Positions 24,001 to 27,000 of a DNA stretch of 64,000 bases are shown piece by piece (within the stretch, counting starts at the first letter, position 1; each line of letters starts with the position of its first letter). The stretch is from Pseudomonadota bacterium (GTDB taxonomy: Bacteria > Pseudomonadota > Gammaproteobacteria > Xanthomonadales > Rhodanobacteraceae). The position numbers were made by a program. Location of the stretch: positions 37,000 through 100,999 of the forward strand of contig JAFEFO010000040.1 in the NCBI GenBank assembly GCA_018240565.1. Direction: 5' to 3'.

Positions 24001-27000
24001 GCGCGACCCTAGCCGTCGCCGTGGCGACCTTGTTTCTGACTATACTTTTATACATCGTGATCCCGAAGGGTTTCTTCCCGGTGCAGGACACCGGCGTGAT
24101 CCAGGGCATTTCCGAAGCGCCGCAAACGGTATCGTTCGCGGCGATGAGCCAGCGCCAGCAGGCGCTGGGCGCGTTGATCCTGAAGGATCCCGCGGTCGCT
24201 TCGCTGTCTTCGTTCATTGGCGTGGATGGCACCAACACCACGCTCAACAGCGGGCGTTTCCTGATCAACCTCACGCCGCACGGCACGCGCGACGATGCGC
24301 AGACGGTGATTCGTCGCCTGAATGCGTCCGCGGCGAAACTGCCCGGCATCGCCTTGTACCTGCAACCGGTGCAGGACCTGACGATCGAGGATCGCGTCAG
24401 TCGCACGCAATACCAGTTCACGCTCGAATCCACCAGCCTGGCCGACCTTGAAACCTGGGTGCCGAAGCTGGTCGAAGCGCTCAACCAGCAACCGCAACTG
24501 GCCGACGTGGCCAGCGACCTGCAGGCGCGCGGCTTGCAGGCCTATCTTGAAATCGACCGCGACAGCGCCGGACGCCTAGGCATCACCGCCGCCGCGATCG
24601 ACAACCTGCTCTACGACGCATTCGGCCAGCGCCTGATCTCGACCATCTTCACCGAGGCAAACCAGTATCGCGTGGTGCTCGACCTGTTGCCCGAGTTCAA
24701 GCAGGGCCCGCGCGCGCTTTCCAATGTCTACCTGCCCGGCCTGAGCAATGCCAACAACGTTTCGCAAACCCCGCAAGGCTCGGTGAATTCGCCGGGCGGC
24801 GCGCAGTCGGCCACCGGCGGCGCACCGCAGGGCGCGAGCAGCGCGACGGTCACGACCAACCAGGCACCGGCCTCGAACGGACTCGTGCCGCTCAGCGCCG
24901 TGGTCAAGGTCAGCGAGCGCAGCGCGCCCTTGCTGATCGATCATTTGGGCCAGTTTCCGGCGACGACCGTGTCGTTCAACCTCGCGCCGGGCGCCTCGCT
25001 CGGCGCAGCCGTGGACGCAATCCGCGCCACGGAAAAATCCCTCGGCATGCCGGCCAGCATCAATACCGCCTTCCAGGGTGCCGCGGCTGCCTTCCAGGCA
25101 TCGCTGACGAACGAGATCCTGCTGATCCTCGCCGCCATCGCCGCGATGTACATCGTGCTCGGCGTGCTGTACGAAAGCTACATCCATCCGATCACCATCC
25201 TGTCCACGCTGCCCTCGGCCGGTGTCGGCGCATTGCTCGCGCTGATGATCGCCGGCGAGGACCTGTCCATCGTCGCCATCATCGGCATCATCCTGCTGAT
25301 CGGCATCGTCAAGAAGAACGCGATCATGATGGTCGATTTCGCGCTCGATGCCGAGCGCAACGAGGGCAAGTCGCCGCGCGAGGCGATCTACCAGGCCTGC
25401 CTGTTGCGCTTCCGGCCGATTTTGATGACGACGCTCGCCGCGCTGTTCGGCGCGCTGCCGCTGATGCTCGGTACGGGCGTGGGTTCGGAACTGCGTCATC
25501 CGCTGGGCGTGACCATCGTCGGCGGCATGATCGTCTCGCAGATGCTGACGCTGTTCACCACGCCGGTGATCTATCTGTGGTTCGATCGGCTGGCGCGGCG
25601 GGTGGATGCGCGCTCAACGGCGGACTCGATGCAGGTGACGCCATGAAGCCGGTGGTTTTCGCACCTCTCCCGCTGGCGGGAGAGGTCGCGCCGCAGGCGC
25701 GGGTGAGGGTGGTTGGACTTTACGATGCCGCCACCCTCACCCCGACCCTCTCCCGCCAGCGGGAGAGGGGGAAGAACGGTCGCGCGCCATGAACCCCGGC
25801 GGCATCTCCTCGCCCTTCATCCGCCGGCCGGTGGCGACGACGCTGCTGACCATCGGCGTGCTGTTGTCCGGCGCGTTTGCCTTCACCCTGCTGCCGGTTG
25901 CGCCGTTGCCGCAGGTGGATGTGCCGGCGATTTCGGTCAGCGCGGATCTGCCCGGCGCGAGCCCGGAAACGATGGCGACGTCGGTGGCGACGCCGCTGGA
26001 GCGCCAGCTGGGACGCATCGCCGGCGTCACCGAGATGACCTCGTCCAGCTCGCGCGGCAGCACGCGCGTGGTGCTGGTGTTCGACCTGAGTCGTGACATC
26101 GACGGCGCCGCGCGCGACGTGCAGGCCGCGATCAACGCCGCGCGCGCGCAACTGCCAAGCGGCATGCCGGGCAATCCGAGTTATCGCAAGTTCAATCCGG
26201 CCGACGCGCCGGTGATGATCCTCACGATGACCTCGAAGACCCTGAGCCGGGCGCAGATGTACGATGCGGCGTCCACCATCGTGGCGCAGAAGATCGCGCA
26301 GGTGCAGGGCATCGGCCAGGTCGAAGTGAGCGGCTCCTCGTTGCCGGCGGTGCGCGTGGAGCTCAATCCGACGGCGCTCAATCATTACGCGATCGCGCTC
26401 GACACCGTGCGCACCGCGATCCAGAACGCCAACGCGAACCGGCCCAAGGGCTTCGTCGAACTCGACGATCGCCACTGGCAGATCGCGACCAACGACCAGG
26501 CGCGCGAGGCCAGCCAATACCGCGACCTGATCGTGGCCTGGCGCGGCGGCGCGCCGGTGCGCCTGTCCGATGTCGCCGACGTGCAGGATTCGGTCGAGGA
26601 TGTGCGCAACCTCGGCCTGTCCAACGGCGAGCCGGCGGTGATCGTGCTGCTGTACAAGCAGCCGGATGCCAACATCATCGCCACCAGCGATCGCGTGCAG
26701 GCGCTGATTCCGCAGTTGCAGGCGTCGATTCCGGCCGACATCCAGATCAAGGTGGCGTCGGAGCGCACCAGCACGATCCGCGCGTCCCTGCACGACGTCG
26801 AACGCGCGCTGATCATCGCCACGCTGCTCGTCATCGGCGTGGTCTTCGTGTTCCTGCGCAATGGCCGCGCCACGCTGATTCCCGCCGTGGCCGTGCCGGT
26901 GTCGCTGGTCGGAACATTCGCGATCATGTACCTGTGCGGCTTCAGCCTCGACAACCTGTCGCTGATGGCGCTGACCATCGCCACCGGTTTCGTCGTCGAC

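Follow-up and report, generated by a model that had tools for sequence, protein, structure and literature searches.

An open reading frame across a palindromic insert as a probable ribosome relay between mdtB and mdtC in a Rudaea-like gammaproteobacterium

In a 64,000-nucleotide stretch of a Pseudomonadota genome (contig JAFEFO010000040.1, positions 37,000 to 100,999; hereafter the window), the adjacent genes mdtB and mdtC, which encode permeases of a resistance-nodulation-division (RND) pump, are separated by a composite palindrome of a repeat family that we call family A, and a 49-codon open reading frame (ORF) runs across the insert. We propose that this allele probably persisted because one frame across the insert works as a ribosome relay from mdtB to mdtC. 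The window has a GC content of 65% and its host was placed as a Rudaea-like member of the Xanthomonadales; in a protein homologue search the identical MdtC protein (P0001) came from an NCBI metagenome-assembled genome, and the closest named relatives were "Xanthomonadales bacterium PRO7" and "Rudaea sp.". The genes mdtB and mdtC are co-directional on the + strand in a single operon, with the insert between them. At each end the short ORF overlaps its neighbour in an ATGA (25643-46 and 25789-92), and all 49 codons in between are open. Both overlaps lie within copies of the nonamer CGCCATGAA, which stand 146 nt apart (3x49-1). A first-pass annotation of this DNA had given these coordinates, the two nonamers, their spacing and the ORF with both of its overlaps, all of which were exact on re-check, and the family A palindrome that it placed between the nonamers was found there. 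The 49-residue product of the ORF matched no Pfam family.

NTGA overlaps between genes mediate translational coupling by termination and reinitiation (PMC10666635; review PMC12548453). Reinitiation requires an overlap or a very short distance, with a spacing of ~20 nt nearly abolishing coupling, and such overlaps are enriched among genes of heteromeric complexes (PMC10666635; PMC12548453); in E. coli, MdtB and MdtC assemble as a B2C heterotrimer (PMC7015380). In the mechanism we propose, an old family A insertion would have split an ATGA stop/start overlap that coupled mdtB and mdtC, the subunits of a heteromeric RND pump. An insert of 142 nt with a hairpin of -110 kcal/mol would uncouple mdtC, and the relay ORF would restore two successive -4 overlaps. 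A ribosome ending mdtB at the UGA at 25644-46 would reinitiate on the overlapping AUG at 25643, translate 49 codons while melting the very stable hairpin on its way, terminate at the UGA at 25790-92 and reinitiate on the overlapping mdtC AUG at 25789. The peptide itself would be functionless, and its start, its stop and the openness of the frame would alone matter. Translation of the relay ORF, a need of mdtC for coupling, and an origin of the geometry in selection and not in the insertion mechanism are inferred. No strong Shine-Dalgarno sequence precedes either the relay ATG or the mdtC ATG, which fits a dependence on coupling without proving it.

The evidence that carries this proposal comes from the same junction in many genomes. 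An MdtB scan of one genome per species gave 80 loci, and 80 junctions were placed, made up of 79 loci and the window. Among them were 37 NTGA overlaps, 25 gaps of <=30 nt and 18 larger inserts, to which L010, with a gap of 934 nt, was added by hand. In a second, independent set from metagenomes, consisting of relatives at <=73% identity, NTGA overlaps were present at 39 of 71 junctions among the matches listed. The 4-nt overlap is the normal state of the mdtB-mdtC junction. Junctions were counted as insert-bearing if more than 30 nt separated the two genes, which gave 23 inserts from many phyla; their carriers include Pseudomonas, Aquipseudomonas, Geothrix, Acidobacteriaceae, Burkholderiales and Stellaceae. 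These inserts are unrelated in sequence and have only the NTGA in common.

An insert was scored as carrying a relay ORF if a start codon within -8..+8 of the mdtB stop was in frame with a TGA overlapping the mdtC start, and as a null the inserts were shuffled with dinucleotides preserved and 0-2 nt removed at random. Relay ORFs were found in 17 of the 23 inserts against 2.7 expected, a count that was reached in 0 of 200,000 simulated sets. When related inserts were collapsed to 19 events, the relay was present in 13 against 2.1 expected (P = 1e-12). Of the 23 inserts, 17 have the relay frame open, compared with 5 of 46 for the other two frames (Fisher P = 2e-7). Most inserts have a single open frame, and that frame is the relay frame; because of this, the enrichment does not arise from a general scarcity of stop codons. 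In computed variants the relay was mostly lost when 1 or 2 nt were removed or the insert was inverted. Divided by 3, the gap length leaves a remainder of 1 for 13 inserts, of 0 for 8 and of 2 for the other 2, and between related inserts the length difference is a multiple of 3 (202 vs 247, 121 vs 157 and 142 vs 142). The first-pass annotation had offered two causes for a geometry of this kind, a shared insertion mechanism or strong selection on which insertions survive inside operons. The inserts are mutually unrelated, and for this reason selection for translational coupling fits better than a shared insertion mechanism, which the comparison does not support. Selection on which insertions survive is strongly supported by the 17 of 23 relays, their specificity for one frame and the in-frame indels.

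Several observations weigh against this interpretation. At this locus, the shuffled window insert gave a relay ORF in 20% of trials (P about 0.2), and the relay ORF at this one locus is not significant. It had been cautioned that open frames of such length might be equally common in shuffled sequence; the ORF at this locus does not stand out from shuffles, and the class as a whole does. No relay ORF is present at 6 of the 23 insert-bearing junctions, so that a relay is not obligatory, and a strict relay occurs in only 2 of 5 inserts of the metagenome set among the matches listed. Filled and empty alleles are much alike in Shine-Dalgarno strength and in how accessible the mdtC start is predicted to be, so these calculations do not demonstrate that mdtC depends on coupling. 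In one close relative, L090, the orthologous insert has an inner stem that has decayed relative to the window without compensating changes, which leaves the hairpin itself under no visible selection.

The first of these points bears on the view that the arrangement is a coincidence at this locus, in which the insert would be tolerated since mdtC initiates alone or the cell can do without the pump, and the ORF would result, untranslated, from nothing more than GC-rich, stop-poor sequence. The chance probability at the single locus agrees with such a view, as do the two of three forward frames that are open in the junction copy and the frequent redundancy among RND pumps (PMC7015380). However, the class-wide enrichment is specific to the relay frame, and the geometry survives both large rearrangements in L085 and in-frame indels between related inserts, and we consider coincidence quite unlikely.

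Two junctions in the wider sets have other arrangements. In a third metagenome insert (L096, 4618-4675), which is 50 nt long, the mdtC frame extends back to an ATG that overlaps the mdtB TGA, so that coupling is kept through an N-terminal extension of MdtC with no relay ORF. In a Zoogloea metagenome-assembled genome (L036, 9061-9985), mdtB and mdtC are separated by a 919-nt ORF that begins in a GTGA overlap and finishes in an ATGA overlap; apparently an entire gene was inserted with both couplings intact.

Table 1. Features of the mdtABC region of the window, with the basis of each assignment
Feature	Position	Strand	Basis or remark
mdtA-like gene, membrane-fusion protein	21004..22269		ORF list
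mdtB-like RND permease gene, 1075 aa	22419..25646	+	ORF list; Pfam PF00873, E = 0
Lineage-specific mdtB tail, last ~11 codons, common to L090	about 25615-25646	+	Tail comparison
Left copy of CGCCATGAA	25639..25647	+	Contains mdtB TGA 25644-46 and relay ATG 25643-45, ATGA overlap
Candidate relay ORF, 49 codons + TGA	25643..25792	+	ORF list; frame also open in orthologous L090 insert
mdtB stop TGA	25644-46	+	ORF list
Family A composite palindrome, 123 nt	25655..25777	.	Repeat and fold analysis; in L090; not in L081-84, L088, L092
Element right flank, now 3' end of relay ORF	25770..25788	+	Homology of window and L090 right flanks to L081 empty-allele tail (GGGGCAGGCGGTCG...CGCGTCATGAA)
Right copy of CGCCATGAA	25785..25793	+	Contains relay TGA 25790-92 and mdtC ATG 25789-91, ATGA overlap
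mdtC-like RND permease gene, 1041 aa, paralogue of mdtB	25789..28914	+	ORF list; 100% identical protein P0001 and homologues carry PF00873

Close homologues were collected by protein search, and their contigs were retrieved so that the junctions could be compared (L081-L092; identities are those of MdtC). The PRO7 loci L081-83 and the Rudaea sp. locus L084, all at 95%, have a single ATGA overlap at an empty site (...GAGTCCGCGTCATGAATCCCGGCGGCATC...). L088 (92%) and L092 (87%) are also empty, with single GTGA overlaps, and L001 has a single NTGA overlap too. This alignment, which had been proposed along with the first-pass annotation, bears out the supposition that mdtB and mdtC overlapped in an NTGA until the insert arrived. 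L090 (87%) carries the insert of the window, with a 142-nt gap, zero indels relative to the window and the relay frame open; from CGGCGGACTC to the second hairpin the two are ~87% identical as counted by hand on the alignment. The window and L090 relay peptides differ at many residues, and different elements encode unrelated peptides. The relay peptide is not conserved as a protein.

Other filled alleles in this clade are rearranged or unrelated. In L085-87 (95%), the first hairpin core (CCCGCTGGCGGG) is kept, the second hairpin is decayed, a further unit resembling family A takes the place of the middle, and there is no left ATGA module. MdtB in these loci runs into the element and ends at a TGA; 5 nt further on, a 40-codon ORF begins with an ATG and runs to the mdtC ATGA, and it was annotated as a gene by the source's own gene caller. 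The ending of this ORF, GRHTP-stop, is in the frame of the window MdtB tail MQVTP-stop. In L089 (89%) and L091 (91%) the gaps, of 202 and 247 nt respectively, contain a different palindromic element that is AT-richer, and in both there is a relay, with an ATG overlapping the mdtB TGA and a frame open to a TGA that overlaps the mdtC GTG. The L089 and L091 inserts are orthologues separated by several indels, one of them a nested insert of 69 nt, for a net difference of 45 nt. A bridging ORF is present in every filled allele of the clade. Because empty, same, rearranged and different inserts coexist among close relatives, the junction is an insertion hotspot in this clade. At the position of window 27270, L089 and L090 carry a ~120-nt palindromic insert in frame within mdtC, which yields an MdtC of 1081-1088 residues.

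The junction copy of family A is built from outer arms of 31 nt at 25655-85 and 25747-77 that are 87% complementary, two 11-bp hairpins at 25663-86 and 25746-69 with stems CCTCTCCCGC / GCGGGAGAGG, and a perfect inner inverted repeat of 12 nt at 25701-12 and 25731-42 (GGGTGAGGGTGG / CCACCCTCACCC). RNA folding of the palindrome region gave -109.8 kcal/mol (z = -9.9). This extreme stability would suit an action at the RNA level like that of repetitive extragenic palindromic (REP) sequences or bacterial interspersed mosaic elements, by which the hairpin would stabilise the mdtB segment of the mRNA or determine the ratio of MdtB to MdtC, leaving the ORF incidental; the 2:1 stoichiometry of B to C (PMC7015380) could in principle suit attenuated downstream expression. 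However, the L090 stems show no compensating changes, and the same ORF geometry occurs in unrelated inserts with weaker structures. A scan of the entire window at Rfam gathering thresholds gave no match, and no terminator-like or promoter-like site was found in 25300-26100. We regard an RNA-level role as highly unlikely. A GTAG-type REP/REPIN head is not present, the family A hairpins beginning with CCTCTCCCGC or CCCTCTCCCCC; a RAYT gene was not searched for.

Further copies of family A were found in the window at ~189-336 and ~31405-31545, with a half copy at 30307-30372. These copies bear on whether the geometry could be built into the element itself. Family A would in that case be a mobile cassette similar to the interspersed repetitive units of mycobacteria (MIRUs), with its own ORF, start and stop, which targets start codons or NTGA junctions, and no later selection would be needed. 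The block conserved between the window and L090 begins upstream of the palindrome; the new mdtB tail and the left ATGA belong to it along with an AGGTG motif, as would be expected of such a cassette, and family-A-like elements are found at the same junction in the window, L002 and L021. The copy at 189-336 provides the start codon of a prepilin gene, and one element frame is read in all three full copies of the window. Against this, the same layout is present in unrelated inserts, namely the Pseudomonas GCAAGC-type repeats, the AT-richer palindrome of L089/L091, and those of Geothrix and Acidobacteria. Read by hand, the L021 hairpin motif is in a different register from that of the window and the L002 peptide has no motif in common with that of the window, and the other family A copies are without a constant flanking repeat. 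On balance a built-in geometry seems unlikely, and selection for an open relay frame is preferred.

All three full copies (180-345, 25648-25784 and 31398-31552) share one element frame in the host ORF (..VRG/VRV.., ..PTLS..). In family A copies the forward frame with GGG-TGA-GGG is closed, and most reverse-strand frames contain stops. An hrpA-like helicase ORF at 29501-33577 (1358 aa) contains two family A inserts, at 30271-30366 (96 nt) and about 31390-31545 (141 nt), both of them multiples of 3, in frame and located in linkers separating Pfam domains. The first is present in the window only, and the second is also in L085 and L092 and not in five other relatives. In the copy at 189-336, the last hairpin contains ATG 316, the apparent start codon of a prepilin-type gene at 316-834 whose N-terminus reads MGERGKNQ/GFTLIELL, with the N_methyl motif at residues 8-31. 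A family A copy in L085 (13095-13235) overlaps the 3' end of mdtC and provides its stop codon (MGERVG-stop, from GGG-TGA).

The first-pass annotation had further claimed that the mdtB/mdtC junction was duplicated around the insertion. In the register of the TGA/ATG overlap, six unconstrained positions of the nonamer match between the two sides (P about 3e-4 from base composition), and the same context is found at 3 of 675 other TGAs of the window (0.4%). An unconstrained local alignment of the left and right flanks was marginal at P = 0.05. Coding constraint, which had been named as another source of the identity, accounts for part of it: five of the nine bases in the right copy (ATGAA) are set by the conserved Met-Asn start of MdtC, and the left TGA is a stop codon. 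More generally, MdtC almost always starts with Met/Val-Asn/Ser, giving (A/G)TGA(A/G) on the right side regardless of the upstream sequence. The sequence CGCC(A/G)TGA is also the junction sequence in L001, L092 and L085. Because a chance match in the fixed register is unlikely and CGCC(A/G)TGA stands at the junctions of relatives, duplication of the junction motif is credible.

A clean 9-bp target-site duplication is not established by these comparisons. To the right of the palindrome, homology to the MdtB tail of the empty allele spans 12-25 nt, well past 9 bp, in both L090 (GGGGCAGGCGGT-TGCGTGTCGTGAAT vs L081 GGGGCAGGCGGTCGAGTCCGCGTCATGAAT) and the window (GTCGCGCGCCATGAAC vs L081 GTC-CGCGTCATGAAT), and the left tail ..ADSMQVTP-stop is specific to the window/L090 lineage. 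It is this long homology on the right and the lineage-specific tail on the left, together with the marginal flank alignment and the varying repeats at other copies, that make a clean duplication doubtful. Direct repeats flanking the other family A copies had been suggested as a check; read by hand, they measure ~6 nt (CCTACG) at the hrpA copy 31405-31545 and ~14 nt, imperfect, at the half copy, with none at 189-336. No flanking duplication of constant length emerged across these copies when filled and empty sites were compared. At the element of L089/L091, only TGA is common to both sides. The right flank probably preserves part of the ancestral mdtB tail, and the duplication may go back further and extend beyond 9 bp. 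The history was either an entry of the element into the variable mdtB tail, with a longer duplication that later decayed, or one that included later deletions. Sliding identity between the window and all close relatives is star-like at 86-89%, which leaves the order of events unreadable and is compatible both with one ancestral insertion followed by later losses and with transfer by recombination. On the + strand of the window CGCCATGAA is found five times (13368, 25639, 25785, 41199 and 46256) against 1.5 expected from shuffles.

The principle of an insertion that preserves coupling is not new and, as cited in PMC12548453 and PMC3184786, was proposed for MIRUs in 1997. MIRUs are described there as repeats that lie between the cistrons of mycobacterial operons and contain an ORF overlapping its neighbours at -4 (PMC12548453, citing Supply et al. 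1997), with tetranucleotide direct repeats at filled sites (PMC3184786). In the published reading, their insertion barely affects downstream expression, by way of translational coupling (PMC12548453). The junction copy of family A resembles MIRUs, so described, as a short repeat between co-directional operon genes with an internal ORF that overlaps the flanking stop and start at -4 spacing. A short direct repeat at filled sites (here the nonamer) and a polymorphism of empty and filled sites (here L081-84, L088 and L092 empty; L090 and L085-87 filled) are also common to both. In contrast, the two come from different phyla and have no evident sequence relation, a separation made by description with no MIRU sequence compared, and MIRUs are described there as 40-100-bp units that are often tandem, whereas family A here is a single gammaproteobacterial composite palindrome of 123 nt. 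A further difference is that many unrelated inserts share the geometry across phyla in our comparison, which points to a selective filter rather than to the property of one element family.

Other known systems share parts of this arrangement. In leader-ORF coupling and bicistronic designs (PMC12548453), a short non-functional ORF ends overlapping the start of its target, delivers ribosomes to it and removes inhibitory RNA structure. The short ORF described here differs in that it is also coupled at its 5' end to the upstream gene, as a relay between two long genes, and in that it was apparently born of a repeat insertion. A natural example of leader-ORF coupling is tap-repA of plasmid R1. Miniature inverted-repeat transposable elements (MITEs; general features in PMC3184786) are, like family A, small and present in several copies, with terminal inverted repeats, a fold that is stable, and empty as well as filled sites. 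Family A differs in that no fixed-length target-site duplication is shown here and in that its hairpin loops and ends vary greatly between copies; no parent insertion sequence is shown for it either, and no transposase with matching ends was searched for. Chunjie of Geobacter uraniireducens is a MITE that inserted in operons without disrupting them. By position, family A can be likened to the Rickettsia palindromic elements (Ogata et al. 2000, as cited in PMC3184786), with copies in frame in hrpA and one that donates the prepilin start codon, whereas the junction copy lies between two genes and is part of neither protein. Full-text literature searches that paired translational coupling with MITE, REP or repeat elements returned no other description.

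Taken by itself the mdtB-mdtC locus of the window is unremarkable, and it is the result at the level of the class that is clean and directly testable. The comparison offers evidence that selection on NTGA coupling is strong enough to filter which repeat insertions persist, a natural experiment run in many lineages, and it would carry the idea behind MIRUs beyond a single mycobacterial family, to unrelated repeats of Proteobacteria, Acidobacteriota and others. Small hypothetical ORFs in intergenic repeats could be explained as relays, not as protein genes, and annotation pipelines could label them as such. A heteromeric RND pump junction with natural empty, filled and rearranged alleles is also an easily testable system. 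Whether relay ORFs reflect a general rule, by which DNA landing in a coupled junction of a heteromeric complex survives only with a frame from the upstream stop to the downstream start, is a real possibility that we raise tentatively and stop short of favouring. If this rule is true, many hypothetical mini-genes within the intergenic repeats of operons would be selected ribosome relays. In a stronger version, family A may have evolved to tolerate translation, given its two open forward frames, its in-frame copies in hrpA and its role as donor of start and stop codons.

The same tendency is seen under a looser criterion at mdtA-mdtB junctions, where it applies to about 9 of 15 distinct inserts, including that of the window. 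The window insert at this junction (22270-22418) is a repeat of a second family, family B (GTCATTCCGGC..GCCGGAAT), and the mdtA/mdtB gap in L090-L092 is 7 nt. An ORF at 22279..22422 starts 10 nt past the mdtA stop, and its end overlaps mdtB in an ATGA. Other copies of family B are located at 57796-837, 57898-945 and 58716-763. A family-B-like palindrome at ~33590-33640, just past the hrpA stop, is present in the window, L081, L084, L085 and L091 and not in L088, L090 or L092.

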